Of a stretch of 64,000 nucleotides of DNA, positions 1-18,160 are shown piece after piece (the first letter of the stretch is position 1; the number at the start of each line of letters is the position of its first letter). Under the pieces are notes generated by a model, which was not told where the DNA came from, searched no databases, and worked only from the letters and a program-made list of their open reading frames with translations. Made by a program: the position numbers and the translations under genes. The stretch lies in assembly GCA_044867425.1 (NCBI GenBank), contig JBIOUX010000104.1, forward strand, positions 211-64,210, given 5' to 3'. The stretch comes from Acidimicrobiia bacterium. Lineage in GTDB: Bacteria > Actinomycetota > Acidimicrobiia > IMCC26256 > BP-133.

Positions 1-292
1 GCCGGAGGGCCACCACGAGCCCGGCCACGAGCTCGATGACGCCGACGGCGTACATGAGCTGGTGGGTCGTCCAGGGCAGCACGTCGGCGAACTCGGGGGC
101 GAGGTAGCGGTCCCAGTTCACAAGGACGTGGGCGAACTTGTCCAGCCCGAAGAGGATGGGGGCGGCGGTGAATCCGAGTCGGAGCAGCCAGAACGCCTGG
201 ACGGTGGGGTTGTCCAGCCCGGCCTTCCCGCCCCTCGCCGTCACGGCGCCTTCCGTCGTGCCGGTGACGGGAGCTGCTGTCGTGGTTGCCAT
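1..292 (-). CDS. DoxX-like integral membrane protein; only the 5-prime part is in the window (gene runs off the left edge)
   Basis: ATG at 292-290 (minus), 8 nt after AGGAGG. My translation is MATTTAAPVTG...FWLLRLGFTAAPILFGLDKFAHVLVNW...YAVGVIELVAGLVVAL, which is hydrophobic and DoxX-like. It is missing from the ORF track because no stop codon lies inside the window. Confidence 0.55.
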   Translation of the reverse strand, partial: MATTTAAPVTGTTEGAVTARGGKAGLDNPTVQAFWLLRLGFTAAPILFGLDKFAHVLVNWDRYLAPEFADVLPWTTHQLMYAVGVIELVAGLVVALR

Positions 293-330
293 CAGTCTTG
301 CCTCCTGGTCTCTAATATCAGGTAGGCTTG

Positions 331-359
331 ACTTTAGAAGCTCTCCTGGATTTCGTCAA
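331..359 (-). promoter_or_regulatory. Sigma70-like promoter for the DoxX-like gene
   Basis: Read on the minus strand: TTGACG (359-354), 17-nt spacer, TAAAGT (336-331). It sits inside an AT-rich island (about 300-390) upstream of the AGGAGG/ATG at 292. Confidence 0.4.
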
Positions 360-448
360 TAGCAATTTTTTTAGAATCAACTCCCGCGCCGCCCGGCGTC
401 TACGGCCAGGGCATGGCGGAGGCGGCGGATCCTGGACTCTCATCGGAA

Positions 449-468
449 ATGAGTGGCGAAACACTCAT
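449..468. promoter_or_regulatory. Palindrome copy 1: ATGAGTG-GCGAAA-CACTCAT (putative operator)
   Basis: Perfect 7-bp inverted arms with a 6-nt spacer, upstream of the ParB-like regulator gene. The same arms recur at 17048-17067 and 33991-34010. Confidence 0.5.
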
Positions 469-584
469 GCGCTTCCCCCTCGTTGTGCGCCAGACTCGAT
501 CGTCGAGAGCCAGCCACACACGGACGCGGTGACGACCCCGCGTCTCTTCGGCGCGATGAACCGCAAGGGGAGGCCGACTTCGAT

Positions 585-1544
585 GTGTCGACCGACGGAC
601 CTCTCATGACTCCCATGGCAGGGCAGCCAGAGCCCCAGGAAATCCACTCTGTAGCGATCGACACGCTCAGGGAGGCCTTCACTCCCCGGCTCGGCCCTGG
701 CGATGTCGATCACATTCGCGCTCTGGCAGAGTGTTACGGCGATCTCCCACCCGTCGTTGTCCACCGCTCCACCATGACGGTGATCGACGGCGTGCATCGC
801 ATCTCCGCAGCCCGGTCACTCGGCCATTCGACCATCAAGGTGCGCTTCTTCGACGGGTCCGAAGCCGATGCGTATGTCGAAGCGGTGCGGGCCAACATCG
901 CCCACGGCAAGCCACTGGCCCTCTCGGAGCGACGCGAGGCAGCCAGGAACGTCCTTCGGCTGCATCCCGAATGGTCCGACCGGAGAGTGGCGGAGACGTG
1001 CGGACTCTCGCACAAGACGGTTGGTGCGGTACGGAAGCGATCGGCTGGAGAACTTCCCCACTTGAGCGTGCGTGTCGGTCGTGACGCCAGGACCCGGCCC
1101 ACCGACCCGGCCGCCCTCCGGCTTCAGGTCGCCGAGATGGCGCGGGCGACACCGACCGCGTCGCTGCGACGGCTGGCGGACCAGGGCGGCACATCGCAGT
1201 CGACCGTGCTCGACGTCCGCCGGCGGATGGAGCGCGGCGAGAGTCCCGTGCCGCCGCGGCTCTCGGGACCTGACGTTCGTGCCACGTCTTCCAACCGGCG
1301 TCACCGTTCGGAGCCAACCGCCCTGATGGCGGACAGCGCCTGCACCGCCACCCCGGGCAGCAGGGCTTTCGCCGAATGGTTCGAAACCCATCGGATCTCG
1401 GAAAAAGAGGCCCTCCGGCACCTGGACGACGTGCCGCTCAGCCGGGTGTACCTCGTCGCCGATGAGGCCCGTGGGCAGGCCGCCTTATGGGAGCGCGTGG
1501 CCACCGGCTTGGAAGCACGGGCGGCTGCGGCAAAACGACGATGA
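585..1544 (+). CDS. ParB/Srx-type N-domain plus HTH regulator (StrR-like architecture)
   Basis: Track ORF 453..1544. ParB-like segment: VAIDTLREAFTPRL...PPVVVHRSTMTVIDGVHRISAARSLG. HTH-like segment: RRVAETCGLSHKTVGAVRKR. The GTG at 453 lies inside the palindrome, so the start was moved to GTG 585 (GGGGAGG upstream). ATG 606 is an alternative start. Confidence 0.7.
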   Translation: MSTDGPLMTPMAGQPEPQEIHSVAIDTLREAFTPRLGPGDVDHIRALAECYGDLPPVVVHRSTMTVIDGVHRISAARSLGHSTIKVRFFDGSEADAYVEAVRANIAHGKPLALSERREAARNVLRLHPEWSDRRVAETCGLSHKTVGAVRKRSAGELPHLSVRVGRDARTRPTDPAALRLQVAEMARATPTASLRRLADQGGTSQSTVLDVRRRMERGESPVPPRLSGPDVRATSSNRRHRSEPTALMADSACTATPGSRAFAEWFETHRISEKEALRHLDDVPLSRVYLVADEARGQAALWERVATGLEARAAAAKRR

Positions 1545-1611
1545 CATGGATGGAGCCGTGGCCTCATCCGCCATTGAACCACCAGGATTGACCGTCCCAC
1601 CGATCTGAACT

Positions 1612-1701
1612 ATGAGTAGATTGAGCCGCCGGGCGATGCCTGCAAAGAGTGGGTTCCCATCCTCGACGGCTTGTGGGATTTTCTCACCGCTAGTTCCGTA
1701 A
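1612..1701 (+). CDS. smORF-1, 29 aa: MSRLSRRAMPAKSGFPSSTACGIFSPLVP (speculative)
   Basis: My translation of the 385-bp gap. ATG..TAA. No Shine-Dalgarno. Third-position G+C is 17/29, lower than host genes. Ser/Thr/Cys-containing C-terminal half. Confidence 0.2.
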   Translation: MSRLSRRAMPAKSGFPSSTACGIFSPLVP

Positions 1702-1722
1702 ATACTTCCTGGAGGTATTTCC

Positions 1723-1821
1723 GTGCCCTACGACAAGATCGGCATCCGAGCGAAGGTTGTCCGCCGGAGCCGCAAGCAAGGACAGGACAGCAAGAGCAAA
1801 GAGAAAAAGCCGTCGAAGTAG
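1723..1821 (+). CDS. smORF-2, 32 aa basic peptide: MPYDKIGIRAKVVRRSRKQGQDSKSKEKKPSK (candidate precursor or leader peptide)
   Basis: GTG 1723 lies 7 nt after GGAGG (1711-1715). Third-position G+C is 25/31, which is host-like. TAG at 1819-1821. A GC-rich hairpin follows. Too short for the supplied track. Confidence 0.45.
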   Translation: MPYDKIGIRAKVVRRSRKQGQDSKSKEKKPSK

Positions 1822-1842
1822 CCGGCTGGAACACGATGTGAG

Positions 1843-1879
1843 CAGCGCCGCCGTCGGACAGCATCCGGCGGCTGCGCTG
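1843..1879 (+). terminator. GC-rich stem-loop after smORF-2 (attenuator or leaky terminator candidate)
   Basis: CAGCGCCGCCG (1843-1853) pairs with CGGCGG(CTG bulge)CGCTG (1866-1879), giving an 11-bp stem. There is no U-tract. Confidence 0.35.
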
Positions 1880-1929
1880 ACCACCCCAAAGGCACAGGCC
1901 ACTGAGGAGACTCTCGATCGGCGCCGAGG

Positions 1930-3129
1930 ATGAGACGGAACACCTGGGTCGAGCGGGAACTGGCAAACGGGGTGCGGCTCGCCATTGAAACCGATGGCGA
2001 CGGCTGTCCGAGTTATTGCGTTCGGTACGAGGTAGGGAGTAGCCACGAAGCTCCTCATGAGCACGGGCTCGCGCATCTGGTGGAACATCTTGCCTTCTGT
2101 ACTGGACGCGGGTCATTCGATGATCTCGCGGCTGAGGCCGGCGGCTTCTGCAACGCCGTGACCGACTTTGATTCCACGTCCTACTTCGGGACTGTTCCAT
2201 GTGGCGACCTGGCGGGGCTGCTCGTCCTGGAAGCGGCTCGCATGCGAGATCTCTTGGCCAGCCACGACGAATGGGCGCGGGAGGTCGAGGTGATCGCGGA
2301 CGAAGCCGAGATGTTGAGGAACGATCCCGAGCACCTCTGGATCGAGGATCTGGCCCGGATTCTGTTCGCCAAGAGTGATCCCTACCATCACGGAATTCTC
2401 GGACCGGTGGGCGAACTGCCCGACCTCGCCGAGGCACGTCATTTCCATCGCCGCCACTACACCCCCCTTCGGTGCGCGGTGGCCGTAGCCGGGGCGACCG
2501 AAGTGGAACCACTGCTCTGCTCGCTGGAAACGGGCTTGGGCCGTCTGCCCATGAGCGGCAGAGCAGCGGCGGTACGGCGGCCGACCTTGAGGAAAGCGCC
2601 GAGAACAGCTGACCTCGATGCGGTAGACGGAAGCGCTCGGGTCTATTTCGTTTGGCCCGCGCCGCCGTGGGGCACCCCGGGTTCCTGGGCCTTGACGATG
2701 TGGGGAAATCTTCTTGTCGTGGGCGCCGACGCCCACCTGGCCTCGGTCAGGGTCAGCGGCGCACCGCTCTCCGACTACGGATATCAGATCCTGCGCTGGC
2801 GGCGTGCGCCGCTCCTGATCGTCTGGGGTGAAGCTGACGATGAAGATGTGCTGCGGCTCGAGGATGCGCTCCACCGGGCGTTGCTCGAAGCCCCTTCACC
2901 CAGCGGCACTGACATCGAGCGCGCCCGGCATCTCGAAGCCATCGGCGGGGCTCGGGCCGTGGAGGACTCATGCGACCGGGCCGGCCTCAAGGCCGACGCC
3001 CTCGCCTACCAGTTGGCTGAGGGAGATGGTGTTCTTCTGATCGAGCGCGTCACCGATGAAATGGTCAGGGAGGCGGCGAGGGTCACCCGGGGACCCGTGT
3101 CCGCGGTTTTGCGGTACCACGGCCGGTGA
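1930..3129 (+). CDS. M16 family zinc peptidase, catalytic subunit
   Basis: Inverted zincin motif HxxEH in GLAHLVEHLAF. 399 aa. Confidence 0.85.
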   Translation: MRRNTWVERELANGVRLAIETDGDGCPSYCVRYEVGSSHEAPHEHGLAHLVEHLAFCTGRGSFDDLAAEAGGFCNAVTDFDSTSYFGTVPCGDLAGLLVLEAARMRDLLASHDEWAREVEVIADEAEMLRNDPEHLWIEDLARILFAKSDPYHHGILGPVGELPDLAEARHFHRRHYTPLRCAVAVAGATEVEPLLCSLETGLGRLPMSGRAAAVRRPTLRKAPRTADLDAVDGSARVYFVWPAPPWGTPGSWALTMWGNLLVVGADAHLASVRVSGAPLSDYGYQILRWRRAPLLIVWGEADDEDVLRLEDALHRALLEAPSPSGTDIERARHLEAIGGARAVEDSCDRAGLKADALAYQLAEGDGVLLIERVTDEMVREAARVTRGPVSAVLRYHGR

Positions 3130-4265
3130 CGCTTGGATTCCCCCTGGTGTCCACCCGGCACCATCGCCTCGGCGTGGTGTCGGGCCGCGCCCTGTACGAC
3201 GCCGGCGTCTGGCGGGAGGAGGTTCCCGGGGCCGCGCTGTTGCTGCTGTGCTGGCTTCGGGCCGCCTGCCGGGGCAGCCCGGCGCACGCTGCCACCGCCC
3301 CGCTGGCGGCGCTCGGCGTTCCCCACTTCTGGCACGCCAGCTGGGAGTTTCTCGAGTTGGAGTTCGAGTGCCTTGACGAGGACGTCCAGGCGGTCGTGGA
3401 ACGCTTACCGGTGGGAACGCGGTTCGGTTCCCAGTCTGATCCCACCTCGCTCCGGGACGCTGTCGACCGCGCCTTCAGGATGCACCACACCCAGATGAGA
3501 AGCGCCCTCGCCAGCGGGGCCAGCCACGCCGCGCAGGCCCTGGGCCGAGCATGCCTGGATCGCTACGGTCTCGTCGGAGCCGCGCCACCGGCCGGTGCCG
3601 ACGGCTCCGTGATCGTCGGGATGTGGGAACGCCTGGGGCCGCCCAAAGCCATCGTCCTGGCCGGCGACACGGATGTGGCCGAGGCACGGCCGGTTTGGCC
3701 TTCAGCCGCCGCACCGATTCCTCGCCCGCCCAGGCCTGTCGCCGCCCCCGTCTGCCGGGATGAGCGGGTATGCGTGACGGTGGCATTGGAGGCGGTCGAC
3801 TGGCCGATCGCGGCTACCACGGCCATGGTGCTCGAACGTGAGTTGGTGGGCCGGTTCCGCCAGCAGGACGGGCTTGCCTACGAGATCTCGTCGGAACCTC
3901 TCGGTCACTGCGTCCTCGGCCAGATGGTGGGGGGACGGAAACGGCGGGACGCTCTCGTCGTCCAGGCTCGTGCCGTCCTTCGTCATCTCCGCGAATTGTC
4001 ATCGCCGCTCTGGCAACAGGGCGCGCGCATGGCTTTGGCCCAAGCGCTCGCCGTCCGGCAGCGATCCGAAGTCGTTGTCGACCGGATGGTGGAGATCATG
4101 GCGTCCCAAAACTCGTTCCCCGGCCAGGAGATGGAGAGGGAGATCGACCGGTTGAGGTGGATGGCCGAGAACCCGGCGGATCTGTGGCGGCCCGCTCCTG
4201 CGCCTGGCGTTCTCGTCCTCACGCAGCCAGGCCGACCGGCGCAGCAGCACCTCGCCCGTGCTTGA
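3126..4265 (+). CDS. M16-like peptidase partner subunit (no HxxEH)
   Basis: GTGA overlap with the upstream M16 gene and a similar size. It lacks the zinc motif, which fits a non-catalytic partner of an M16B-type pair. The call rests on context and weak family resemblance. Confidence 0.6.
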   Translation: MTLGFPLVSTRHHRLGVVSGRALYDAGVWREEVPGAALLLLCWLRAACRGSPAHAATAPLAALGVPHFWHASWEFLELEFECLDEDVQAVVERLPVGTRFGSQSDPTSLRDAVDRAFRMHHTQMRSALASGASHAAQALGRACLDRYGLVGAAPPAGADGSVIVGMWERLGPPKAIVLAGDTDVAEARPVWPSAAAPIPRPPRPVAAPVCRDERVCVTVALEAVDWPIAATTAMVLERELVGRFRQQDGLAYEISSEPLGHCVLGQMVGGRKRRDALVVQARAVLRHLRELSSPLWQQGARMALAQALAVRQRSEVVVDRMVEIMASQNSFPGQEMEREIDRLRWMAENPADLWRPAPAPGVLVLTQPGRPAQQHLARA

Positions 4266-5523
4266 CGCCGGCCGGGCCCGCAGGTCTGGACCAGGCCTGT
4301 GGGCGGACCCCGACTTCCTCAAGTTCTGGACCGCCCAAACCGTGTCGAGAGTCGGCACCCAGGTCACGTTTCTCGCCCTGCCGCTCACTGCCGTCGTGCT
4401 CCTGGACGCGAGTCCTGCCCAGGTCGGTTGGCTGGCCACCGTGGAGTATCTCCCGTACTTCTTCAGCCTGTGGGCGGGTGTCATAGTGGATCGCCTGCGT
4501 CGGCGCCGTCTGGTGGTGGGCGCGGACATCGGCCTCAGTCTCGTCATGGGCGTCGTCCCCGTAGCGGCGGCTACCCACCACCTCACCTATCCGGCCTTGC
4601 TCGGGGTCGCCTTCGCGGTGGGGTGCCTCACCATGCTCATCGAGATCGCCCAGACGAGCTATCTCCCCACCGTGGTCCGTCGGGTGCACCTGCTCGAGGC
4701 GAACACCAAACTGGAGGTCGGCCGGGTCGCCGCCCAGGTGTCCGGATCGGGACTGGGCGGGCTGCTGATCCAGGCGCTGTCGGCGCCCATCGCCATCGCC
4801 GCCGACAGCGCGTCCTACCTGGTGGCCGGATGCCTCATGGCTCGGATTGCCAAGCCTGAGGCACCGCCACCACGGCAGAGGACCCGCGTCCTGGCGGAAG
4901 TGCAGGAAGGCCTGAGGATGGCCCTGGCCCTGCCGCTGCGGCCCCTGCTCTTCCTGGCCGCGCTGGACAACCTCGTCCTTTCGGCGCAGGGCGCGGTGTT
5001 CGTTCTCTACATGGCTCGGGATCTGAGTTTTCCGCCCGCGTGGATCGGCTTCGTCACGGCCGCGAGCAGTATCGGCGGCGCCCTTCTCGGTCTCGCTGGG
5101 CGGCGCTCCCGTCTCGGCCAGGACCTTCACCGTCGCGTGTCGGGCGCGCAGTCCATGCTCGTCGCCAGCATCGCGATCATGCCCATCGCCACGCTCGTCT
5201 CACCGGTGACTTCGCTCGCACTGATGATCGCCTCCGGTTTCCTCTACGGTGCCGCCACCGTCGTCCTCTTCGTCACCATCGTGACCGCACGACAAGCGCT
5301 GACTCCCGACGCGCTCCTCGGCCGGGTCAGTGCCGCGTGGCGCTTCCTGGCGGTGACGGCGACGCCCGCCGGTGCCTTTCTGGGCGGGACCCTGGGACAG
5401 GCACTGGGACTCCCGACGACGTTCTTCCTGTGCGCCACCGGCTTGTGCGTTCCCCTCGTCCTCATCGCCCGCGCTGAGAGCCGGGCCGGGCTTGCGCTAG
5501 CGGCGGGCCAGAAACACGGATGA
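4258..5523 (+). CDS. MFS transporter (EntS/MFS_3-like exporter)
   Basis: Multi-TM hydrophobic profile. N-terminus WADPDFLKFWTAQTVSRVGTQ and loop DRLRRRRL. Overlaps the upstream stop codon. Confidence 0.85.
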   Translation: MLDAGRARRSGPGLWADPDFLKFWTAQTVSRVGTQVTFLALPLTAVVLLDASPAQVGWLATVEYLPYFFSLWAGVIVDRLRRRRLVVGADIGLSLVMGVVPVAAATHHLTYPALLGVAFAVGCLTMLIEIAQTSYLPTVVRRVHLLEANTKLEVGRVAAQVSGSGLGGLLIQALSAPIAIAADSASYLVAGCLMARIAKPEAPPPRQRTRVLAEVQEGLRMALALPLRPLLFLAALDNLVLSAQGAVFVLYMARDLSFPPAWIGFVTAASSIGGALLGLAGRRSRLGQDLHRRVSGAQSMLVASIAIMPIATLVSPVTSLALMIASGFLYGAATVVLFVTIVTARQALTPDALLGRVSAAWRFLAVTATPAGAFLGGTLGQALGLPTTFFLCATGLCVPLVLIARAESRAGLALAAGQKHG

Positions 5524-6288
5524 CCGCTTGCTGGCCAGGAACGGGCCGTCGAAGTGGGGCAGTCGGGAGGCCAGCTCCGCGCCATCCATTCTCCTGGCCA
5601 GGTGGTCCCGCACCGCCGCCCAGTCGGCAAAGGTGACCTGTCCGTTGGCGTCGAGCCGGTCCACCTCCCGGAAATGGCGCTTCAGCCGGCGCCGGCCGTT
5701 CTCGCGGCTGAAGGCGATGATGATGGCGGGTGTCCCGAACAGCAGCTCCCACAGTTCACTGAGGTTGCGCTCACTGAGTGTCGCGGCGACAAGCAAGCCC
5801 CCGGGTCGCAGGACCCGAGCGGCCTCACGGATCCCGGCCGCGACGTTCTCGAGATAGTGCAACACCCAATTCGCAATAAGACAGTCGACGGTTCCTGAGG
5901 CGAAAGGCAACCGGTTGAGGTCGGCAATTACGGTCCCGAGACCCCGATCGGCTGCCATCTTTGCCATGCGCGGTGAGAGGTCCGCGGCCAGGACTTTTCC
6001 CTTGATTGCGGTTTGCAGCCGAGCGGCGAAGACCGCCGTACCGCAGCCGACGTCCACGATCGTGCCCGGATGAAACTGAGCGACTCTTTCGAACGCAAGC
6101 TCCAAGGCGTCAGTACCCGTTCCCGTGTCGTACAACGCCGACTGCGCCTCGTAGTCGCTCTCCTGTGCGAACGCCTCGAGCACACGTTGGCGATGGCTAA
6201 CAGTCTTCGCGGAATGATCACGGCGACGATCGCAACCTGATTGACCTATCACCGCACAACTATTAACGTCGCTTTCAGCGTACTTCAA
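5497..6288 (-). CDS. Class I SAM-dependent methyltransferase
   Basis: SAM motif I IVDVGCGTAVFAARL. Converges on the MFS gene with a 27-nt overlap. Start codon uncertain. Confidence 0.8.
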   Translation of the reverse strand: MKYAESDVNSCAVIGQSGCDRRRDHSAKTVSHRQRVLEAFAQESDYEAQSALYDTGTGTDALELAFERVAQFHPGTIVDVGCGTAVFAARLQTAIKGKVLAADLSPRMAKMAADRGLGTVIADLNRLPFASGTVDCLIANWVLHYLENVAAGIREAARVLRPGGLLVAATLSERNLSELWELLFGTPAIIIAFSRENGRRRLKRHFREVDRLDANGQVTFADWAAVRDHLARRMDGAELASRLPHFDGPFLASKRSSVFLARR

Positions 6289-6342
6289 GCCTGGCTGTCC
6301 AGAATTTCATCGCGCCGGGAGAGGCGCCGCGGAGGAGAGCCT

Positions 6343-7512
6343 ATGCCGGACAGCACGGAAGCTTTCGTCCCCTATGAGCATGAGCGTGTCGAGCGGGAAT
6401 CGACCAACTGGTGGGATCTGCTCCCCATCTCGATCAACGACACCTACGGCGACCCGTTCATCCCCGAACAGGTCGAGAATACGGTCATGAAGATCACCCG
6501 GCTCATGGACCATCGATTTCCCCTGGCAATCTTCACCAAGGCTGGGTATGACCGTGCCGTCCTACAAAAATTGCGGGCGATTGCTGCCAATGACCGTGTG
6601 GTGGTCTTCTACAGCCTCACCGGCTTGAACGAGGGCGGTATTTCTTTCGGAGAACGCTTGGCGATGATCGATGGGCTCCGTGACATCTGGGACAACGTCG
6701 TCGTCTTCACCCGTCCAATCATCCGGAACCGGAACGACGATCCTGCACTCCTTCAACGCCTCGTGGATGTTGCCGCCGCCGGAACCAAACTCCTCGTGAT
6801 GGGCGGCCTGCACGACCGCTACAAGAACAAGTTGTTGGAATTTGCTATCGAAGACCTGCTCACGGAAATGTGCGACCAACAAGGCGTGAAGTGCTTCCAC
6901 AAGACCGCCTGTTGCGCCGCTTATCTCCATCGCCGGTCCTGCTGGGTACACGACATGACTGGCCCTCACAACCTTGAGGTGGCGCGCCAGCTCGGCTATC
7001 GGTTCGCGATCATCGAGAATCGCGTGGTCCTGGACCGGGCCAGCACGGGTGACCTGAACTTCCTGCGCATGCTGGTACGGGCCGGCGTGTACGCCGCCCG
7101 TCTCATCAGCAACTACAACCTGCTTACGATCCCGAGCGGCGAGCAGAAATACGAAGCCACTTCGAGTTGGTACGCCTGGTCGGAGAACATCGATACCTGC
7201 CTCGATTGTGACTATTGCATCATCAAGCAGATTGAATATCTGAAGAGGATGCGGGTGAAGATCGGCACGCATCCGTCAGAAATGGTCGAGATCGTCCGCG
7301 CCCTGAATCCGGGAGTCGACTTTTCGACGTTCCAGATGACCAAGCTGCGCGAGGAACGGTCGGAGGCGCATACTTACGACGACGTCCGGGTGGTGAAACC
7401 GTGCTTCGTGAGGCGTTATCCACCCCCACCTCTTGCTGCCATCTCGGGGACGGCCCCGGACCGCGTGGTCGCGCCACTTCGGATCGCATGTACTCCGAGC
7501 TCCGCACGCTGA
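6343..7512 (+). CDS. Cys-rich protein with a radical-SAM/SplB-like barrel signature but no N-terminal CxxxCxxC; C-terminal CLDCDYC
   Basis: ATG 6343 follows GGAGGAG. ISINDTYGDPFIPEQ...LAIFTKAGYDRAVL...FTRPIIRNRNDDP resembles the post-cluster part of COG1533-type radical SAM barrels. Cys-rich tail: CDQQGVKCFHKTACCAAYLHRRSC and CLDCDYC. G+C is visibly lower than in neighbouring genes. Confidence 0.6.
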   Translation: MPDSTEAFVPYEHERVERESTNWWDLLPISINDTYGDPFIPEQVENTVMKITRLMDHRFPLAIFTKAGYDRAVLQKLRAIAANDRVVVFYSLTGLNEGGISFGERLAMIDGLRDIWDNVVVFTRPIIRNRNDDPALLQRLVDVAAAGTKLLVMGGLHDRYKNKLLEFAIEDLLTEMCDQQGVKCFHKTACCAAYLHRRSCWVHDMTGPHNLEVARQLGYRFAIIENRVVLDRASTGDLNFLRMLVRAGVYAARLISNYNLLTIPSGEQKYEATSSWYAWSENIDTCLDCDYCIIKQIEYLKRMRVKIGTHPSEMVEIVRALNPGVDFSTFQMTKLREERSEAHTYDDVRVVKPCFVRRYPPPPLAAISGTAPDRVVAPLRIACTPSSAR

Positions 7513-8231
7513 GCGCCGGCACGGCGTCCTTCTACTGCATGGTGGAACGGCCACGAAAGGGAGCGGCGGCTCCCGATGGGGTCTTCCTTCTGCACGGCCT
7601 GGGCGAGGACCGTAGCGGCCACAACTACCTGTGGTCGCAGATGGCCCGGCGTCTGGTGTCGGACGGTTCCACCGTCTACCGGTGCGACCTGGCCGGCATG
7701 GGGGACTCCCTACTGCCTCTCGACCTCGATCTCTGGGCCAGGCAGCTCGACGCCTTGGGAGGTCTTGGACAAGACCATGATCGCATCCACGTCGTGGCCC
7801 GGGGGGCGGCCCGCTGCATCGTGCCCGACAACTGGCGACGGGGGACTGTGGTGGCCCTGCGGCCGTGCGGCCCCCGGGATGTCGACACGGGGCTCGGAAG
7901 CGCACTGGGGCGGGCCGTCTGTGGCCAGGTGAGGCCCGTCCCGGGCGATGTCGGACCGGAGGAGAGCCGGTTCTGGACTGCGCTGGGAACCGAGGTGCGC
8001 GCCATCGGAGGCGCCAGTGTCAGTGCCTTTTTCCTCACTCAGGTCGCCTCCCGCACGACCCCGTGTCCTTCTTGCTGGACGGTCCTCGCCGCCGTTCACG
8101 ATGCCGATCGTGTCCCGGAGGAGGCCATCCTGCTCGACACCCCGAGCTCGCTGTTCCTGCTCGAGGCGGACCGCGGACAGGTCCTGGAGCTGGTCACCCG
8201 AGCGCTGGCCGGGACTGGTCACCGGCGTTGA
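7488..8231 (+). CDS. Alpha/beta-hydrolase-fold protein with a degenerate nucleophile elbow
   Basis: Track ORF 7401..8231. GVFLLHGLGEDRSGH and CDLAGMGDS are alpha/beta-fold-like. The elbow reads VVARGAA instead of GxSxG. Start is uncertain (ATG 7488 or 7539). Confidence 0.5.
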   Translation: MYSELRTLSAGTASFYCMVERPRKGAAAPDGVFLLHGLGEDRSGHNYLWSQMARRLVSDGSTVYRCDLAGMGDSLLPLDLDLWARQLDALGGLGQDHDRIHVVARGAARCIVPDNWRRGTVVALRPCGPRDVDTGLGSALGRAVCGQVRPVPGDVGPEESRFWTALGTEVRAIGGASVSAFFLTQVASRTTPCPSCWTVLAAVHDADRVPEEAILLDTPSSLFLLEADRGQVLELVTRALAGTGHRR

Positions 8232-8866
8232 GTTCGAGGGCGCTGTTCGTCGCCGTGGAAGGCATCGACGGCTCAGGGAAGTCGACGATGGCCGCGGCCC
8301 TCGCCCGGACCCTGGAGACCCGAGGGCGCGCCGTCAGCGTGCTCCGTCCGCTGGCCCCCGAGGGGCGTGTGGTCGACGATGTGCGCTTCGTCCACCAGGC
8401 CCTGGGCGGTCGGAACTCGGAATTGGACCGTCTCAAGGACCGATTCCTCTCCACCTACTTCAGCTATCGACTGGCATTGTCGGCCGTGCGGGAGATCGTT
8501 CCCCGGCTGGAGGCCGGGGTCTCGGTCGTTGCCGACCGGTATCTCGGATCCCATGTGGTGAACCAGGCGGTGTTCGGCGAAGACCTCCAACCCGTCCGGG
8601 GCCTGCTGGAACGCCTCCCTCCTCCGGACGTGACCTTGTTCCTCCAGGTCCCGGTTCCCGTCGCCCTGGAGCGGCTGCAACCTCGACCTCGGCGGGGCGT
8701 GGGCGATCATCGCCGCTTCCTTGAAGCCGCCGACGCCGGCTTCCAGGACCAGGCCATCCTTCATGGTTGGGTCGTGCTGGACGGGACGCGAGCCCCCGAA
8801 GTGGTCGCCGTCGACGCCGCCGACCAGATGGAACGCGCCTTGGGAGCCGCGGAGATGCGGCGGTGA
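8228..8866 (+). CDS. Thymidylate kinase-like P-loop kinase
   Basis: FVAVEGIDGSGKST P-loop and ADRYLGSHVVNQ (DRY..S..YQ-like). A TTG start forms a TTGA overlap with the upstream stop. In frame with track ORF 7865..8866. Confidence 0.7.
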   Translation: MSSRALFVAVEGIDGSGKSTMAAALARTLETRGRAVSVLRPLAPEGRVVDDVRFVHQALGGRNSELDRLKDRFLSTYFSYRLALSAVREIVPRLEAGVSVVADRYLGSHVVNQAVFGEDLQPVRGLLERLPPPDVTLFLQVPVPVALERLQPRPRRGVGDHRRFLEAADAGFQDQAILHGWVVLDGTRAPEVVAVDAADQMERALGAAEMRR

Positions 8867-10566
8867 TCAGTTTCGACGGCCCCAGTGGCGTCGGCAAGAC
8901 AGGCGTGGCGGCCGCGGTGGCATGCCGCCTCGGTCTCCCCTTCGTCAGTGTCGGCGACGTCTACCGCACCCTGGCCATCGCGGTGGCCGATGGGATGGCA
9001 CTCACGGCCGCGACCGAGCGGCTGGTCGTCCGACCGGCCGCACCCGGGCGGCCGCCGGTGGTCACCCTCGACGGCCGGGCCCTGGGCGCGCGGCTGTTGG
9101 TCGACGATGCCATCGAAGGTGCGGCGGCACGTCTCGCCCGACAGCCGGGCGTCTGGGAAGCAGTCAGCCGGATCGTCCGCTCCGCTACCGACGGACAGCA
9201 GGCCGTCGTCGAGGGAAGAACCTCGTACGAGCTGGCTGACGGCAACGGACTCCGGTTCTTCCTGTGGGCCGACCCAGCCGAGAGGGCGCGCCGGCTCCAT
9301 GCCGAGAAGGCACGACACGGTTGGCAGGGCAGCCTCGATGAGATCGGGCGAGGAACCAGGTGGCGTGACGGCGAGGACGCGCGCCGGGTCGACCACCCGT
9401 TGCGCCTGCGGTCCGGCATGATCTTCTGGGATTCGAGCGGGAGCCCGTCCCAAGAGGAGACCGTCGACGGTGTCTGCCGGCTGATCAGGCACCACCAGGG
9501 AACGTCACCGCTCGGGGCGTCGGTCGTCATTCCCGCCGGCCGGCGCCGACACCATGCCGTCCTGGCGCTCGAAGCCCTGTCCAGGCAAGATCTCGACCCC
9601 TCCCGGTACGAGGTCCTGGTGGTCCGGGATAGCGGGGCGGACAACCACATCTGCCTGCCGCCGGGGCTGAACGGGCATGTGCTCGAGACCCGCCGGCGGG
9701 GCGCGGCGGCGGCCCGGAACCTCGGCCTCGCACAGGTGCAGGGCGACGTCGTGATCTTCCTGGATGGCGACATGCTGGTCGGGCCTGACTTCCTGCGCCG
9801 CCACCTCGAGCTGCACGGCCGGCGTCATGACCTGGTGCTGTCCGGCGCCCGCCGCCACCTCCCGCCGGGACCCGAGGTACCCACCTCCGGCTCCCGCCGC
9901 GATTCGCGCGAGGCGATTCTCGACCGGTACTCGTACAACCTCGGCTGCCTGGCCAAGCCCTGGAGCCTCGCCTACAGCTGCAACCTCAGCCTGTGGACGA
10001 GACGCGCCCGGGACGCGGGTGGCTTCGACGAGCACTTCGTGACCTGGGGTCTCGAGGACCTCGAATTCGCCTACCGCTGTCATCAACAGGGAGCCCGCTT
10101 CGGGTACAGCCGGAGGGCGGGGGGGCACCATCTCTGGCACGACCGGTCGCTCACCCCGGAGCGATACAACGATTGGTCCACCAGCCTGCGGTGGTTCGTC
10201 GAACGCCATCCGACGGCCGACGTGAACGACCTCGGCCTGCTGGCGCCGGCATTCGACCCCGCCCGCCGGGGAGATTTTTTTGCCGCCTATGAACGCTTCA
10301 ATGGCGTCCGGCGAAGCCGTGGCCCTCAGCGCGTCATCGAGACCGGCGCGTTCGACGACGCGCTGGAGGTGGCTCAGCGGGCGGTGGCGGAGGACGACGG
10401 CGGGGACGTCATCGTCGTGGACGGCCTCGACGACGAAGAGACCTGCCTCCTCATGGAAGCGGCGACGCCGGGACGACACGTCCAGGCCTACCAACGCTCG
10501 GACTGGGAGCGGCTGACGGCCACGGAGCAGGCCCCCCCGGTGCTCCTCGAGGGCGCCCCCCGGTGA
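8863..10566 (+). CDS. Fusion protein: cytidylate kinase-like N-domain plus family-2 glycosyltransferase
   Basis: N-terminus ISFDGPSGVGKTGVAAAVACRLGLPFVSVGDVYR is Cmk-like. Middle part VVIPAGRRRHH...VLVVRDSGAD...NLGLAQVQGDVVIFLDGDMLV is GT2 with a DxD-type motif. GTGA overlap at 8863. Confidence 0.75.
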   Translation: MISFDGPSGVGKTGVAAAVACRLGLPFVSVGDVYRTLAIAVADGMALTAATERLVVRPAAPGRPPVVTLDGRALGARLLVDDAIEGAAARLARQPGVWEAVSRIVRSATDGQQAVVEGRTSYELADGNGLRFFLWADPAERARRLHAEKARHGWQGSLDEIGRGTRWRDGEDARRVDHPLRLRSGMIFWDSSGSPSQEETVDGVCRLIRHHQGTSPLGASVVIPAGRRRHHAVLALEALSRQDLDPSRYEVLVVRDSGADNHICLPPGLNGHVLETRRRGAAAARNLGLAQVQGDVVIFLDGDMLVGPDFLRRHLELHGRRHDLVLSGARRHLPPGPEVPTSGSRRDSREAILDRYSYNLGCLAKPWSLAYSCNLSLWTRRARDAGGFDEHFVTWGLEDLEFAYRCHQQGARFGYSRRAGGHHLWHDRSLTPERYNDWSTSLRWFVERHPTADVNDLGLLAPAFDPARRGDFFAAYERFNGVRRSRGPQRVIETGAFDDALEVAQRAVAEDDGGDVIVVDGLDDEETCLLMEAATPGRHVQAYQRSDWERLTATEQAPPVLLEGAPR

Positions 10567-11336
10567 CCACTCCGACGCCGGCGAACGATCCGGGGCGTCC
10601 TGTACGCCGCGAGGAACTCGTCGCCGTGGGCGACGGTCACGTCCTCACGGTGACCGACTTTCCCGCCCGTGAGCCAGCCGGCACCGTCGTCCTGTGTCAT
10701 GGCCTCACCGGAGATCGAGTTGGCCCCCAGCGGCTGCTCACCGTACTGGCGGAGGAGATCGCTTTGGGCGGCTTCCTCTGTCTGCGCTTCGATTTTCGCG
10801 GCTCGGGAGACTCCAGCGGGGACTTCTCGGGCTCGACCTTCACGTCGATGCGTGAGGATGTGGAGCTCGTCACCAGCTGGGGACGGGAGCGGTACGGGCG
10901 GCACCCCCTGGGGCTGGTCGGACTGTCGATCGGTGGGGTTCCGCTGGCGGTGGCCGCCCGCCGGTTCGACCACGTGGGCGCCGTCGTCCTGCTCTCGAGC
11001 GACGTGATCGAGGACGTCTACTTCCCCGATATCGGCCCCATGGTCGCCATCCGGGGCGGCGAGTTCCAGCTGCCGGCGAGCTTCTGGCGGGAACGGGAGC
11101 TTCTGCACCCGTTCAGCGACCTGCTGGCGACGGGTAGCCCGGTCAAGCTCTTCTACGGCGCCCAGGACGAGAAGCTGGCTCGAGAAGCACGCCGGTTCAG
11201 AGCGGCCGGATTCTCAGTCGAGCAGATCAGGGGCGTGGGGCACCTCTTCGAAAACATCGAGACCCGACACTATCTCGGCCGTCGTGTCGTCAGGTTCCTG
11301 CGCCGGCACCTGGTGCACCCGGCTCGGCGGCCATGA
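10563..11336 (+). CDS. Alpha/beta hydrolase
   Basis: VVLCHGLTGD, DFRGSGDS, and nucleophile elbow GLSIGG. GTGA overlap at 10563. Confidence 0.75.
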   Translation: MTTPTPANDPGRPVRREELVAVGDGHVLTVTDFPAREPAGTVVLCHGLTGDRVGPQRLLTVLAEEIALGGFLCLRFDFRGSGDSSGDFSGSTFTSMREDVELVTSWGRERYGRHPLGLVGLSIGGVPLAVAARRFDHVGAVVLLSSDVIEDVYFPDIGPMVAIRGGEFQLPASFWRERELLHPFSDLLATGSPVKLFYGAQDEKLAREARRFRAAGFSVEQIRGVGHLFENIETRHYLGRRVVRFLRRHLVHPARRP

Positions 11337-12502
11337 AGCGGACGAGCACCGAGTTCACACTCTGCCTGATCGCCAAGGACGAGGCCGAATACATCGACGA
11401 CTGCCTGCGCAGCCTGGCCGACGAGGCGTCGGCGATCGTCGTCGTCGACACAGGGTCCAGCGACGGAACCGTCGAGATCGCACGTCGGTACACCTCGCAC
11501 GTGTTCCTGCAACCGTTCGACGGCGACTTCAGCCGCGCTCGCAACCTCGCTCTCGGCTTCGTGCGCACGCCCTGGGTGGTCTTTCTCGATGCCGACGAGC
11601 GGTTCGACGGCAGGCAGGCAGCCAAGCTGCATCACCAGCTCATGGCGGTCCCCCCCGAGGTCATCGCCCTGCGGGTCATGCGCTACAACTTCTTCGCCAC
11701 GGGCGGCTGGTATTCAGGCAAGGAGATCAAGGTTTTCCGAAATCATCCCGCCCTCCGGTACCGGTGGGCCATCAACGAGAGCGTCCGTGACTCGGTGGAG
11801 GAGCTCGGAGGCGGTATCGGGGAGCTCCCGGTCGTGCTCAACCATTTCGGCCACTGTCGCCCGCGGCCGGTCCGTGACGCCAAAGCCCATCGGTACATGG
11901 CGTTGATCAGCGCCCGGCTCAAGGCCAATCCCGGTCACGGTCTCCTCGTCGGCTATCTGGCACTGATCCTGCGGACCCTGGGTCGGTTCGACGAGGCCAT
12001 GGTCCACGCCCGGCGAGCGATCTCGCTCGCCCCTGACGTCGCCCGGGTGCACCAGTTCCACGGGCACGTTCTGCGGTCGGTGGGAGCCGACCAGGAGGCG
12101 CGCGATGCCTACGCCCGCGCCGTCGACCTCGATCCCGACGACGCCGCCAACTGGAACATGCTGGGGGTGATGGATCTGACGCTCGGCCGCCGGTCCGACG
12201 CGGGCCACGACTTTGTCAATGCGCGGCGCGTCGACCCCATCGCCCTGCACGTCCTCGTCAATCAGGGTCTCTGCGAACAGGCGGCGGGACGATACGCAGC
12301 GGCGGCTCAGCTGTTCGAGGAGGTCGCCCGGGTCAACCCCGGCTTCCTGCACGATGAATGGCGGGGACGGGTGGAATGTGATCCGTTCCGCGAGTTCTAC
12401 TACGAGACCATCATGCAGTACGCCGGGCTCGGGTACCACCTCGGCTACTGCCGCTACCTGGCCGCCACGGCCACCGGGCCGAGCGTGGCCCTGAGGGCAT
12501 GA
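11333..12502 (+). CDS. GT2 glycosyltransferase with C-terminal TPR-like domain (SunS-type architecture)
   Basis: FTLCLIAKDEAEYIDDCL...VVVDTGSSDGTVEIA...DFSRARN...FLDADE, followed by helical repeats (LRTLGRFDEAMVHARRAISLAPD...). ATGA overlap at 11333. Confidence 0.75.
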   Translation: MKRTSTEFTLCLIAKDEAEYIDDCLRSLADEASAIVVVDTGSSDGTVEIARRYTSHVFLQPFDGDFSRARNLALGFVRTPWVVFLDADERFDGRQAAKLHHQLMAVPPEVIALRVMRYNFFATGGWYSGKEIKVFRNHPALRYRWAINESVRDSVEELGGGIGELPVVLNHFGHCRPRPVRDAKAHRYMALISARLKANPGHGLLVGYLALILRTLGRFDEAMVHARRAISLAPDVARVHQFHGHVLRSVGADQEARDAYARAVDLDPDDAANWNMLGVMDLTLGRRSDAGHDFVNARRVDPIALHVLVNQGLCEQAAGRYAAAAQLFEEVARVNPGFLHDEWRGRVECDPFREFYYETIMQYAGLGYHLGYCRYLAATATGPSVALRA

Positions 12503-13791
12503 GTCCCGATCGAGCGCGGGCCACGACCCTCGCCGCCGCATGGCGACGCCCGGGTCTCCTCTGCGACCTCATCGCCGATCTCGACCACTGGCCGCCGCCA
12601 CCTCGACCGCGGGCACCTCTGCCGGAATTCGACGACGCCGACTCGGAGAAGATCGCCCCCCACGTTCTGAGCCTCTCGAACGGGACGGCACGCGATCCGC
12701 GGCTCGATCGGCAGTGGGCGGCGATCACCAGGAAGCGCAAGGTGCTGGCCGGCGAGGCACTGGCCATTGCCGAAGCGGCCCGAGCTACGGCCAGCCGGAT
12801 CTTGTTCCTCCGAGGCTTCGCGATGGATCCGTACTACCCGGACGGGTACCTGCGACAGTTCAACGATCTCGACGTCGTAGCTGCCACCGAAGCAGACGGC
12901 GATCGGCTGCTGCGGCAGCTGCACCGGCGTGGCTACTTCCACTCCCGGCCCGCCGTCGCCATCCGTAGTCCCGGAGACCGCCGTCAGCCGCTCTGGATGC
13001 TGTTCTCCCTCAAGGCCCTTCACCCTGACCTTCCCGAACCCGTCTTCGTCGACCTGGTTCTCGGCGGGCCCGCCGCCACCTCAGTCTCCAGACTTCCGCT
13101 GCCGATCTCCCTCTTCGAGCATCCCGGCTGGGTCGCGGTCGACGGCGGTCGTCTGCCGGTACCCGACGCCCTGCACTGCCTGCTCGTCCTCATCACCGAG
13201 ATGTACGAACGCCGGCAGGTCACCGTCCGGGACCTTCTCGATTTCGATCGCGTCCTGGGCCGCATCAAGGCGCCGGAACAAGCCGCGACGGAGGTGGCCC
13301 GGCACCGGTTCGAGGCTCAGGTCGAACGGCTGGCGCAGGCAGCGACCCAGTTGGGAGCGCCGGAGTTGGCCCGGCGCCTGCGGCTGCTGGCACCACGTCA
13401 CAGCGGCGGTGCGCCGACCCGGTGGTTCGGCCCCCTCCTCCCCCACGCCATGAGGCACGCTTGGGCGGATTCACCTTCCACCGCCCTGCTGCGCCTTGCC
13501 GTGGCCACCGCCGGGCCCCTGCTGGACCGGGTCGAGGACCGGGTTCCGGGCGCCGCGCTCAACTTCTGGCGACATGTGCCACCCCGTCACGGTTATCGCC
13601 TCGGCCTTCCCATCTACCTCTTTCCACTCCTGACGACCGTGGAGCCCGCCGCCCCGGGAGAGGAACGGTTCCCAGACACGTACCGGCGGGAACGATTCAG
13701 CGCCTGCGGGCGCATGTTCCTCGCCCGGTGCCGGCCGGTGGTGGACGAGACCGAGCTCGGGCTGCTCGAGCCCGCCTTTGATGCGGGTTAG
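12499..13791 (+). CDS. Uncharacterised nucleotidyltransferase family protein (NTP_transf_5-like)
   Basis: LFLRGFAMDPYYPDGYLRQFNDLDVVAATEADGDRLLRQL matches the KG..Y....R...D.D.LV signature of this family. ATGA overlap at 12499. Confidence 0.6.
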   Translation: MSPDRARATTLAAAWRRPGLLCDLIADLDHWPPPPRPRAPLPEFDDADSEKIAPHVLSLSNGTARDPRLDRQWAAITRKRKVLAGEALAIAEAARATASRILFLRGFAMDPYYPDGYLRQFNDLDVVAATEADGDRLLRQLHRRGYFHSRPAVAIRSPGDRRQPLWMLFSLKALHPDLPEPVFVDLVLGGPAATSVSRLPLPISLFEHPGWVAVDGGRLPVPDALHCLLVLITEMYERRQVTVRDLLDFDRVLGRIKAPEQAATEVARHRFEAQVERLAQAATQLGAPELARRLRLLAPRHSGGAPTRWFGPLLPHAMRHAWADSPSTALLRLAVATAGPLLDRVEDRVPGAALNFWRHVPPRHGYRLGLPIYLFPLLTTVEPAAPGEERFPDTYRRERFSACGRMFLARCRPVVDETELGLLEPAFDAG

Positions 13792-14764
13792 GCCGCTCCA
13801 GCCGGGCGACGAGGGCGCCGTCGTCGAGATGGCCCTCGGGCAGCGCCTGGACAGGGTTCACCCACGTGAACAAGACCTGGCGGACGCCGCCTTCGTCCGG
13901 CGCCGCCTCCGCCGCCGGTTCGCTCCCGACGCGATCGGCAACGTCCAGAGCCTCGGCTGCTTCTCCGGCGGCCGCCTAGCGGCGTTCGTCGTCGAGGCAG
14001 ATGGGATTCATCCCCTGACCAGGGAGCGCGAACGGCACCTGGTGGACGCCGGTTGCGGGCCTGGCGATGCGGACGCCCTGGGTGAGCTCGTCGGGCGGGT
14101 CGTGTCAGCCGCCCGAACGGACGGGGTCGACGTCGTGCGGGCCGATGTGGGCGTCGGAGGCAAGCACGCTCACGACATGCTCCGGACGTTCACCAACAAG
14201 GGGTTCGTGGAGGAGTTGATGGTGGTGCGCAGGGCCGTCGGAACGGCGGGATCGACCGGAGGCGAGGTCATGCTCACACCGCCCGAACATCGACGCTACG
14301 CGCTCGACTGCCTCCACCTCGCGATCGCCAACGCACTGAAAGCGGCCGGGCGCCAGGTCGACGACCGGCTCATCAGGCGCTACGTGGGCCGCCGGTTCGG
14401 GAAGCTCACCACCGCCACCCAGTGGTCGTTCCTGGCCCTGGAAAGCGGCCACCCCCGGGCTCACGCGCTCGTGCAGTCGATGCGAGCCGACCTGCGACGC
14501 GCCCATGAGGCGTTCGTCGTCGACATCTTCGTGCCCCGCGTCTGGAGCGGCCGGGGCTGGTCGGCTCGGCTGCTCGGGCACATCGATCACTTCCTCCAGC
14601 AGAGAGGCATCGATCGGATGCAAGGTACTGTCTTGCAGATCAACGATGCTCACAGTGCCGACTTGCTGCGAACCCTGTCGGGCTCGGGATGGTGGGCCGA
14701 GATGCAGTCACTCGTCCTCACGCTGAGCGGACCGGGCCGTGACGGCCAGGGACGCCACAGGTGA
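13781..14764 (+). CDS. Tandem GNAT-like acetyltransferase
   Basis: Two acyl-CoA N-acyltransferase-like halves. The second carries VPRVWSGRGWSARLLGHIDHFL. Start is ATG 13781 or TTG 13778. Confidence 0.45.
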   Translation: MRVRPLQPGDEGAVVEMALGQRLDRVHPREQDLADAAFVRRRLRRRFAPDAIGNVQSLGCFSGGRLAAFVVEADGIHPLTRERERHLVDAGCGPGDADALGELVGRVVSAARTDGVDVVRADVGVGGKHAHDMLRTFTNKGFVEELMVVRRAVGTAGSTGGEVMLTPPEHRRYALDCLHLAIANALKAAGRQVDDRLIRRYVGRRFGKLTTATQWSFLALESGHPRAHALVQSMRADLRRAHEAFVVDIFVPRVWSGRGWSARLLGHIDHFLQQRGIDRMQGTVLQINDAHSADLLRTLSGSGWWAEMQSLVLTLSGPGRDGQGRHR

Positions 14765-16441: not shown

Positions 16442-16980
16442 CGGGTGGCCAGGACCTGTCCGTCCCCGACCTTCGGATAGCGGTGATCGGCAGAGAAGAA
16501 GGGGCAGATTTGCGGCGGGGGCCACGGCCCGTTGCGGTGGAGATAGGTGTCGACGAACGTCTCCGCCCGAGTCAGGACGTCACCTGCTTCTTCGATGGAG
16601 AATGCTCCGGACGACAGCCGCCGGGCGACATCATCCAGGTCGAGCATTCGGTACGTCGGCCCCATGCCTTCGACGATGACGTCAAGGGCCATGTCGCGCA
16701 CGTGGAGCAGGCCGGGCCGTCGCTCGGTGATCGTCACGACGTCGACGACCCATTCGTCTCGCCACTCGAAGGGTTCGAACACGAGCTGGATTCCGAGATC
16801 GACCAGCCAGAAGAAGCGACGTAACCCGTCCGGCCCCAGCCGGACGTCGTGCTCGTCACGGAACAGCACCGTCCCGCTGCGCCAAGCTGAACAGGGACGG
16901 AAGTCGCGATCACGCCACTGAACTCGGCACCGCTCCAGGGGGATCGTCGGCGAAGCCGCACCCCTCACCATCGGGTCCAT
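16438..16980 (-). CDS. DUF402 (FomD-like nucleotide-hydrolase fold) protein
   Basis: FFWLVDLGIQLVFEPFEWRDEWVVDVVTI...ALDVIVEGMGPTYRMLDLDD resembles DUF402. Translationally coupled to the downstream LLM gene. Confidence 0.55.
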   Translation of the reverse strand: MDPMVRGAASPTIPLERCRVQWRDRDFRPCSAWRSGTVLFRDEHDVRLGPDGLRRFFWLVDLGIQLVFEPFEWRDEWVVDVVTITERRPGLLHVRDMALDVIVEGMGPTYRMLDLDDVARRLSSGAFSIEEAGDVLTRAETFVDTYLHRNGPWPPPQICPFFSADHRYPKVGDGQVLATR

Positions 16981-18152: not shown

Positions 18153-18160
18153 ATGGGTCC

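Follow-up and report, generated by a model that had tools for sequence, protein, structure and literature searches.

The window analysed here is a stretch of 64,000 nucleotides from an Acidimicrobiia bacterium (assembly GCA_044867425.1, contig JBIOUX010000104.1, positions 211 to 64,210 of the forward strand), and the element in question is a small open reading frame (smORF) of 32 amino acids (aa) at 1723–1821, which ends 108 nt upstream of a cassette of three genes: an M16 zinc peptidase gene (M16A), the gene for a probable second, strongly diverged subunit (the partner), and a gene for an exporter of the major facilitator superfamily (MFS). The explanation that we prefer, tentatively and short of calling it probable, takes the smORF for a genuine small gene that is translated into a peptide, which the M16 heterodimer processes and which is then exported. 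What carries this explanation are the sequence features around the smORF, its coding-type statistics, the identity of M16A, and a gene order that is kept in two rare relatives. The features on which the argument turns are as follows.

606–1544, + strand: regulator gene of the HTH_23, ParB-N/StrR-like type (Pfam HTH_23; blastn; called as 312 aa on contig L005)
1700–1720, no strand: palindrome of 21 bp with GGAGG inside (repeat/palindrome search of the window)
1711–1715, + strand: Shine–Dalgarno-like GGAGG, 7 nt before GTG 1723
1723–1821, + strand: smORF, 32 aa, candidate substrate or precursor peptide (open reading frame and codon statistics)
1838–1884, + strand: G+C-rich stem-loop with its core at 1843–1879 (folding energy against shuffles)
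1930–3129, + strand: M16A, active subunit of an M16 zinc peptidase (PF00675 and PF05193; H49-L-V-E-H53)
3126–4265, + strand: the partner, 379 aa, probable non-catalytic M16B subunit (Foldseek of its model; R...GLAY motif)
4258–5523, + strand: MFS (MFS_3) exporter (Pfam; kept in both relatives)

The window has a G+C content of 70.7% and an actinomycete-like character, and its DNA-level matches in the plasmid collection are Streptomyces plasmid records only. M16A and the partner overlap in a GTGA at 3126, and the partner and MFS genes overlap by 8 nt at 4258. For the regulator gene the called start is 606, with the longest open reading frame (ORF) running from 453; its blastn matches are genes of Streptomyces that carry the annotation “ParB N-terminal domain-containing protein,” the StrR-like type.

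The smORF and its coding signature

A preliminary description of this DNA, made from the letters and a list of ORFs, had placed a GGAGG at 1711–1715, a 7-nt spacer, a GTG start at 1723, and a 32-aa ORF with G or C at the third position (GC3) of 25 of 31 codons; every one of these coordinates is correct. The product is MPYDKIGIRAKVVRRSRKQGQDSKSKEKKPSK, closed by the TAG at 1819–1821. It is very basic and rich in Lys and Ser, and the rare codons CGA, GTT, and AAA are present in its gene. Counted by codon position, G+C amounts to 16, 13, and 25 of 31 at positions 1, 2, and 3, so GC3 stands at 25/31 against 29/62 for the first two positions together. The first 16 codons, which are non-repetitive, have a GC3 of 14/16. 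Under a codon log-likelihood model trained on 27 genes of the window, the smORF frame scores +7.9 bits and the other five frames score −1.7 to −35. For comparison, 31-codon pieces of genes taken in frame score 14.7 ± 8.2 bits, with 18% at or below 7.9, and pieces taken off frame score −14.2 ± 14.6 bits, with 8% reaching 7.9. Among the ORFs of the gap at 1545–1929, the smORF alone has a coding-type codon pattern.

How much of this chance would produce was gauged with dinucleotide shuffles of the 385-nt gap 1545–1929 (5000 for the ORF, 300 for the hairpin). GGAGG followed by a start codon and at least 30 codons arises in 7.6% of the shuffles; the combination of ribosome-binding site, ORF, GC3 of at least 0.8, and the contrast with positions 1 and 2 arises in 0 of 5000. 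The window itself holds 289 copies of GGAGG on both strands, about 50 of which precede, at 4–10 nt, a start codon with at least 25 open codons, and these are mostly intragenic. Taken alone, the argument from the ribosome-binding site is weak, because GGAGG with a start and an ORF is frequent in this G+C-rich window. The terms “strong” ribosome-binding site and “highly expressed,” used earlier of this ORF, were overstated: GGAGG is common here, and this copy lies inside a palindrome able to pair it. Taken together, the sequence features exceed chance.

Other reading frames of the gap were considered and set aside. The second smORF, at 1612–1701, already suspected of being poor, scores −20 bits and looks non-coding. 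The ORFs at 1757–1933 (its stop overlaps the ATG of M16A) and 1671–1841 are both flat in G+C by codon position. An antisense ORF of 84 aa at 1610–1864 (−) has non-coding statistics and no ribosome-binding site. Its Cys-rich stretch (SLCSCCPVLACGSGG...CRSC) could invite a lanthipeptide reading; over the smORF stretch it scores −35 bits. The other intergenic gaps of the cluster were searched for a better precursor, and none has both a ribosome-binding site and a coding pattern.

M16A, its probable M16 partner, and their relatives

M16A is called at 399 aa and carries an intact H49-L-V-E-H53 together with PF00675 and PF05193, that is, the HxxEH motif and the M16 N- and C-terminal domains by which an M16B catalytic subunit is recognized. 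Its best PDB match is 3amj_C (4.8e-19), the active subunit of the Sphingomonas M16B heterodimer Sph2681/2682. We take ATG 1930 as the true start because of the 399-aa call and the alignment with the closest relative, P0002. One NCBI annotation of the gene (P0001) is 323 aa long, begins at Val77, and thus omits H49LVEH53.

The partner has no match in Pfam, NCBIfam, or PDB sequences, and a profile comparison of it with the M16A alignment in hhalign was negative. Its AlphaFold2 model, built from a three-sequence alignment, is poor (mean predicted local distance difference test score, pLDDT, 43.6). Searched with Foldseek, this model nevertheless returns 17 matches at E ≤ 1e-3, all 17 from the M16 family, for the most part inactive domains or subunits that are not catalytic, with E of about 1e-4; cytochrome bc1 core 2, “3gwb peptidase M16 inactive domain,” and TTHA1264/1265 are among them, and an AlbEF homologue comes lower in the list. 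In addition, the block R243/R245...G-L-A-Y252 is invariant in the three sequences, and an R/Y motif has been described for the non-catalytic M16 subunits PttP1 and Bcn-gP1 (PMC8960859). On the strength of the Foldseek matches and the R...GLAY motif, the partner is probably a highly diverged non-catalytic M16B subunit. The “M16 pair” of the preliminary description therefore stands for its first gene, an M16 member detectable by sequence; the second has no sequence match and is tied to the family by the model and the motif. M16A and the partner occur together in all three loci that have the cassette.

Very few loci have the cassette: about 5.8 billion predicted proteins yielded three, this one and two relatives. 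M16A has one close relative, P0002, at 59% identity, and every other match is at or below 39%; the partner has two, P0021 at 55% and P0022 at 41%. P0002 and P0021 lie on one contig of 7,525 bp from IMG sample 3300067032 (JGI). The order there is an HTH_23 regulator (326 aa), a called gene of 41 aa (3433–3558), M16A (from 3649), the partner, and MFS, with the same order and strand as in the window, and 90 nt separate the 41-aa gene from M16A downstream of it, against 108 nt for the smORF. A called gene at the equivalent place suggests that the small gene is real and is the best single support for it. Among the relatives, this contig alone covers the peptide region. In both loci the small ORF is in the same frame as M16A, stops in that frame lie between the two, and their starts are 207 nt apart here and 216 nt apart there; the shared frame could be a coincidence (1 in 3) or a constraint.

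The other relative, L013 (IMG sample 3300039169), has 43% identity in M16A, 41% in the partner, and 57% in MFS, and begins at residue 105 of M16A, downstream of the peptide region. It also keeps three genes that follow the cassette in the window: a convergent methyltransferase gene, a gene for a 389-aa protein (73%), and the next gene (55%). On the contig of P0002 and P0021, MFS is followed by a co-directional, coupled gene and not by the convergent methyltransferase. The putative tailoring operon described below thus adjoins the protease cassette in L013 and apparently does not on the other contig.

Weaker homologues of M16A were discarded as guides to the locus: P0003–P0007 belong to housekeeping M16 pairs with ligase, RlmN, or ATP synthase genes as neighbours and show no synteny, and the examined matches at or below 39% identity come from housekeeping surroundings or from short, non-syntenic contigs. 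Two metagenome scans, one with P0002 and one with an N-terminal M16A alignment, gave no syntenic contig, the second returning only generic M16 loci (L014–L016). A scan of genomes turned up nothing closer than distant M16 genes of Phycisphaerae and alphaproteobacteria, and scans of viral contigs were empty.

Expression signals and the downstream operon

The hairpin between the smORF and M16A lies where it had been reported, with its core at 1843–1879, 21 nt past the smORF stop and 50 nt ahead of ATG 1930, and is stronger than the 11-bp stem first given to it. The stem consists of 6 bp (1843–1848/1874–1879) and 9 bp (1850–1858/1864–1872) separated by one 1×1 mismatch, with a 5-nt loop and 3 further outer pairs. 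Its energy is −30.3 kcal/mol, compared with −19.3 ± 2.5 in the shuffles, of which 1 in 300 equals it. Because it has no U-tract it is not a canonical intrinsic terminator; possibly it is a leaky terminator, a weak stop, or a transcript-stabilizing 3′ structure. Searched against Rfam within 1–20000, no covariance-model match covers 1545–1929, even at E ≤ 1. A single-base indel (an extra G) near 1901, in the spacer between hairpin and M16A, distinguishes the otherwise identical same-species contigs L004 and L006, and L004, an assembly contig, starts within the hairpin.

Upstream, the A+T-rich palindrome at 1700–1720 reads AAATACTTCC-T-GGAGGTATTT with one mismatch and extends to arms of 13 nt (1697–1709/1711–1723), with GGAGG within the right arm; folded as RNA, it gives a weak 8-bp hairpin in which GGAGG is paired. 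The window has no second copy of it, at the other promoters of the cluster or elsewhere. The stretch TTGACC-N17-TATGAG at 1588–1616, which a consensus promoter scan does not accept, might be a promoter ahead of the smORF. The start of M16A has no usefully spaced Shine–Dalgarno sequence, a GAGG abutting the ATG, and this weak initiation signal fits, without proving, a high translation of the peptide and a low translation of the enzyme.

From these elements we infer how the locus could work. Transcription would start upstream of GGAGG, probably driven by the adjacent StrR-like regulator. The peptide gene would be translated from a good Shine–Dalgarno site, with M16A behind it having none at a usable distance, and the stem-loop would end or stabilize a share of the transcripts, leaving more message for the peptide than for the enzymes. 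The basic, presumably unstructured peptide would then enter the chamber of an M16B-type heterodimer, formed by the HLVEH subunit and the R...GLAY partner, and be cut there, and the cleaved product would leave the cell through the MFS pump. That a second operon decorates the Ser/Lys tail beforehand, by its P-loop kinases, family 2 glycosyltransferases (GT2s), PF14907 protein, and methyltransferases, is a further and weaker inference. That operon follows the convergent methyltransferase gene, and its nine genes are tightly packed at 6343–15378.

5497–6183, − strand: class I S-adenosylmethionine (SAM) methyltransferase, convergent (domain scan; kept in L013)
6343–7512, + strand: 389-aa protein, first gene of the nine-gene operon (weak similarity to radical-SAM folds)
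7488–15378, + strand: rest of the putative tailoring operon (Pfam/NCBIfam scans), made up of the eight genes below
7488–8231, + strand: alpha/beta-hydrolase-like gene
8288–8866, + strand: dTMP-kinase-like gene
8863–10566, + strand: CMP-kinase/GT2 fusion
10626–11336, + strand: alpha/beta hydrolase
11333–12502, + strand: GT2-TPR gene
12499–13791, + strand: PF14907 nucleoside triphosphate (NTP) transferase, “uncharacterised nucleotidyltransferase” (Pfam, 2.8e-11)
13778–14764, + strand: weakly GNAT-like gene
14761–15378, + strand: methyltransferase

The 389-aa protein is the most conserved gene product of the locus, at 73% identity in L013 (4063–5202) against 41–43% for the peptidase subunits. Its gene has 55–59% G+C in a window of 70.7%. 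It gives a faint radical-SAM/Rv2578c-like signal without CxxxCxxC and has a CLDCDYC motif near its C-terminus. It has no match in the PDB or among plasmids and phages, and its single-sequence model is poor, with nothing readable beyond a beta/alpha pattern.

Beyond the operon, the segment 15326–21932 encodes two luciferase-like monooxygenases, an AHSA1/SRPBCC protein, a PNPOx-like protein, an amidohydrolase, and an extra peptide deformylase; in some cases a supernumerary deformylase marks self-resistance. Between the two monooxygenase genes lies an acidic ORF of 95 aa at 16537–16824 (+), with G+C by codon position of 0.79/0.38/0.72 and no Pfam match, which may be an unannotated small gene. At 22577–28013 a cupredoxin-domain protein is followed by an unusually large multicopper-oxidase-domain protein (1421 aa). 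Further on, two large SARP/BTAD-type regulators, one with an AAA_16 domain and one with TPR repeats, are encoded at 45902–48802 (−) and 54280–57480 (+) around a PAS-GGDEF-EAL protein, in a region where long shadow ORFs overlap in large number, as is typical of very G+C-rich DNA.

Alternative explanations and comparison with known systems

A number of observations weigh against a translated and processed peptide. The 3′ half of the smORF is purine-rich, of low complexity, and mildly repetitive, which can mimic codon periodicity, and GGAGG with a start and an ORF is common both in the window and in its shuffles. The palindrome over GGAGG could be a protein operator or a hairpin that sequesters the Shine–Dalgarno sequence, and the stem-loop is followed by no T-run (its tail is ACCACCCCAAAGG), with a terminator scan of the region empty. 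The peptide has no Cys, no Thr, and no known leader motif. The same-species contigs L004–L006 are identical across the smORF and hence carry no selection signal; the gene caller left the smORF uncalled on the complete contig L005 and called it, as an edge gene, on L006, where the contig edge cuts just upstream. A phmmer search with the peptide against 1.84 billion representatives found no homologue, a 32-aa query having low power. In a word-indexed search of the 5.8-billion collection with a padded 40-aa query, no protein shares three 5-residue words with the peptide, which is therefore unannotated even in its own genome; comparison with Pfam, with PDB sequences, and, by tblastn, with plasmids gave no match either. 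If the 41-aa product of the relative is in that collection it is not closely similar, for it too shares no three such words. Most bacterial M16B pairs are housekeeping enzymes. Finally, Pfam and NCBIfam scans of the genes in 453–21932 found no PqqD domain or other RiPP recognition element (RRE; RiPP, a peptide synthesized ribosomally and modified post-translationally), and no LanB/C/KC/M, YcaO, ATP-grasp, lasso cyclase, or canonical radical-SAM domain.

Several of these points would be met by a region that is not coding at all: a 5′ leader or control region of the M16 operon, in which the ORF has arisen by chance in a G+C-rich genome with few stops, GGAGG is part of a palindromic operator (that of the ParB-N/HTH regulator, for example), and the hairpin is a structure or processing site of the 5′ untranslated region. 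We regard this as rather unlikely. It agrees with the roughly 50 comparable GGAGG cases in the window and the 7.6% of shuffles, with the position of GGAGG exactly inside a 21-bp palindrome with one mismatch, with the 8% of off-frame gene pieces that equal the codon score of the smORF, with the missing call on L005, with the purine-rich, repetitive 3′ half, and with a peptide that has no homologue and no annotation in its own genome record. It does not account for the joint contrast in GC3, ribosome-binding site, and ORF, seen in none of the 5000 shuffles, for the high GC3 of the non-repetitive N-terminal half, for the negative scores of all five other frames, or for the small gene called at the same position and strand on the syntenic contig; nor does the palindrome recur at other cluster promoters, as noted above, or the region match an Rfam family. 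If the smORF is translated and its peptide is no substrate of the protease, the ORF could have a regulatory role, as an upstream ORF or leader peptide whose translation adjusts read-through from the hairpin into the M16 genes, or the product could be an independent small basic protein, a reading that we think unlikely in either form. Attenuators, too, place an ORF and then a hairpin before an operon, the peptide is rich in Lys and Arg with rare codons in its gene, and the part of the smORF at 1751–1773 could pair alternatively with the 5′ arm of the hairpin, to which it is 74% complementary. That pairing is weak, however, and G+C-rich sequence would be expected to yield such pairings by chance; the hairpin lacks a U-tract and, at 21 nt past the stop, lies outside the footprint of a terminating ribosome, so direct translational control would not operate; and there is no logical tie between the supply of Lys, Arg, and Ser and a protease–exporter operon. 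The preferred explanation, a translated peptide cut by the heterodimer, can also be taken further than we have taken it, to a decorated linear RiPP: before M16 cleavage, enzymes of the 6343–15378 operon would add phosphate, sugar, acyl, or methyl groups to its Ser/Lys tail. The preliminary description had offered such decoration as speculation, which it still is, with some plausibility lent by the PF14907 gene; in its full form we hold it to be improbable. The operon does encode two P-loop kinase-like proteins, two GT2s, the PF14907 protein, a weakly GNAT-like protein, and methyltransferases. The GT2-TPR architecture would suit peptide binding, NTP transferases have precedents in pseudomycoidin (PMC6993621) and in the clusters for linear polyphosphorylated peptides (LPPs; PMC13381572), and cassette and operon start stay adjacent in L013. 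The co-directional coupled gene after MFS on the other contig, however, makes the linkage less than universal; no HprK-type kinase, RRE, or LPP leader motif is present; dTMP/CMP-kinase-like enzymes and GT2s would equally fit nucleotide-sugar or glycopolymer chemistry; and there is no direct evidence of peptide modification, so that the operon could equally make an unrelated glycoconjugate.

If the peptide is real and processed, it would belong to a RiPP-type pathway invisible to current genome-mining rules, one that lacks both an RRE and a class-defining enzyme and has a 32-aa precursor without annotation, and a bacterial M16B heterodimer would gain a dedicated substrate, in a family of enzymes for which few natural substrates have been named. 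With three loci among about 5.8 billion proteins, the cluster would be a narrow curiosity unless its product is bioactive. Without translation of the ORF, what is left is an ordinary promoter and leader region, of interest only as a caution on small-ORF calls in G+C-rich DNA.

The closest known counterparts are the M16B leader peptidases of RiPP clusters. The M16 heterodimer PttP1/PttP2 has been shown to be a dedicated RiPP peptidase (PMC8960859, PMC10885120), and LxmP1/LxmP2 and Cao15 have been proposed as M16 leader peptidases in Streptomyces clusters (PMC8068269). Like PttP1/PttP2 and Bcn-gP1/gP2 (class III lanthipeptides), LxmP1/LxmP2 (lexapeptide), and AlbE/AlbF (subtilosin), the locus has an adjacent pair of about 380–400 aa in which one subunit carries HxxEH and the other, the probable subunit, an R/Y-type motif of the non-catalytic kind, and like their clusters (PMC8960859, PMC8068269) it has an exporter, a pathway regulator, and a candidate gene for a small peptide. 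It differs from them in having no lanthipeptide synthetase, radical-SAM sactisynthase, or other class-defining enzyme, and in a partner too diverged for Pfam and hhalign. Compared with class III lanthipeptides in particular, the peptide has no Cys and no Ser-x2-Ser-x3-Cys, and no LanKC domains were found. The RiPP precursor layout proposed in the preliminary description is thus borne out in the coding-type ORF that heads a conserved cassette, and not in the enzymes, since neither an RRE nor a class-defining enzyme was found.

In the pathway for pyrroloquinoline quinone (PQQ), which has PqqA and an M16 peptidase, PqqF/PqqG, a small peptide gene heads the locus, as the smORF does here, and the best NCBIfam match of M16A is PqqF (1.1e-10, far below the family cutoff), with the PqqF structure 5cio among its PDB matches; here, unlike there, pqqB, pqqC, pqqD, and pqqE are absent and the peptide has no Glu-x3-Tyr. 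With the glycocins (SunA/SunS) the locus shares a GT2 with C-terminal helical repeats, and the SunS model matches over the GT2 core at 6e-10, far below its cutoff. This similarity is that of GT2s generally, and unlike a glycocin the peptide has no Cys pairs or double-glycine leader, nor is there a C39 ABC transporter.

A different kinship is with the tailoring of paeninodin and pseudomycoidin and with the LPPs, in which a linear, Ser-rich peptide likewise goes with kinase-like genes, PF14907, glycosyltransferases, and an exporter. An “uncharacterized NTP transferase” is needed to hexosylate the phosphoserine of pseudomycoidin (PMC6993621), and an uncharacterized NTP transferase is a core gene of LPP clusters (PMC13381572), whose core set comprises an SpI-like peptidase, a separate RRE, a kinase like HprK, the NTP transferase, and a transporter like MsbA (PMC13381572). 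Of these five the locus has one, the PF14907 NTP transferase; the other four were not found in the Pfam/NCBIfam scans. The kinases here are dTMP/CMP-kinase-like and not HprK-like, there is no RRE, the M16 pair stands in for an SpI or B2 peptidase and MFS for an MsbA-type ABC exporter, and the host is an actinomycete and not a member of the Bacillota. The LPP leader motif YxxPxVLxHQxIxFETxxS is not in the peptide, which begins MPYDKIGIRAKVV and has no YxxP.

The locus does not qualify as a PQQ, class III or V lanthipeptide, sactipeptide, glycocin, or LPP system; it would resemble a RiPP cassette of precursor, heterodimeric M16 peptidase, and exporter, and yet be a member of no defined class. 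In the boldest reading, which we consider very improbable, it would represent a new and very rare actinomycete RiPP class, without a recognizable RRE, in which nucleotide-kinase-like P-loop enzymes phosphorylate a linear peptide that is rich in Lys and Ser and free of Cys, PF14907 and GT2-TPR hexosylate it, the highly diverged M16B pair releases it, and MFS exports it, and which would be a convergent analogue of the LPP and paeninodin tailoring of the Bacillota.

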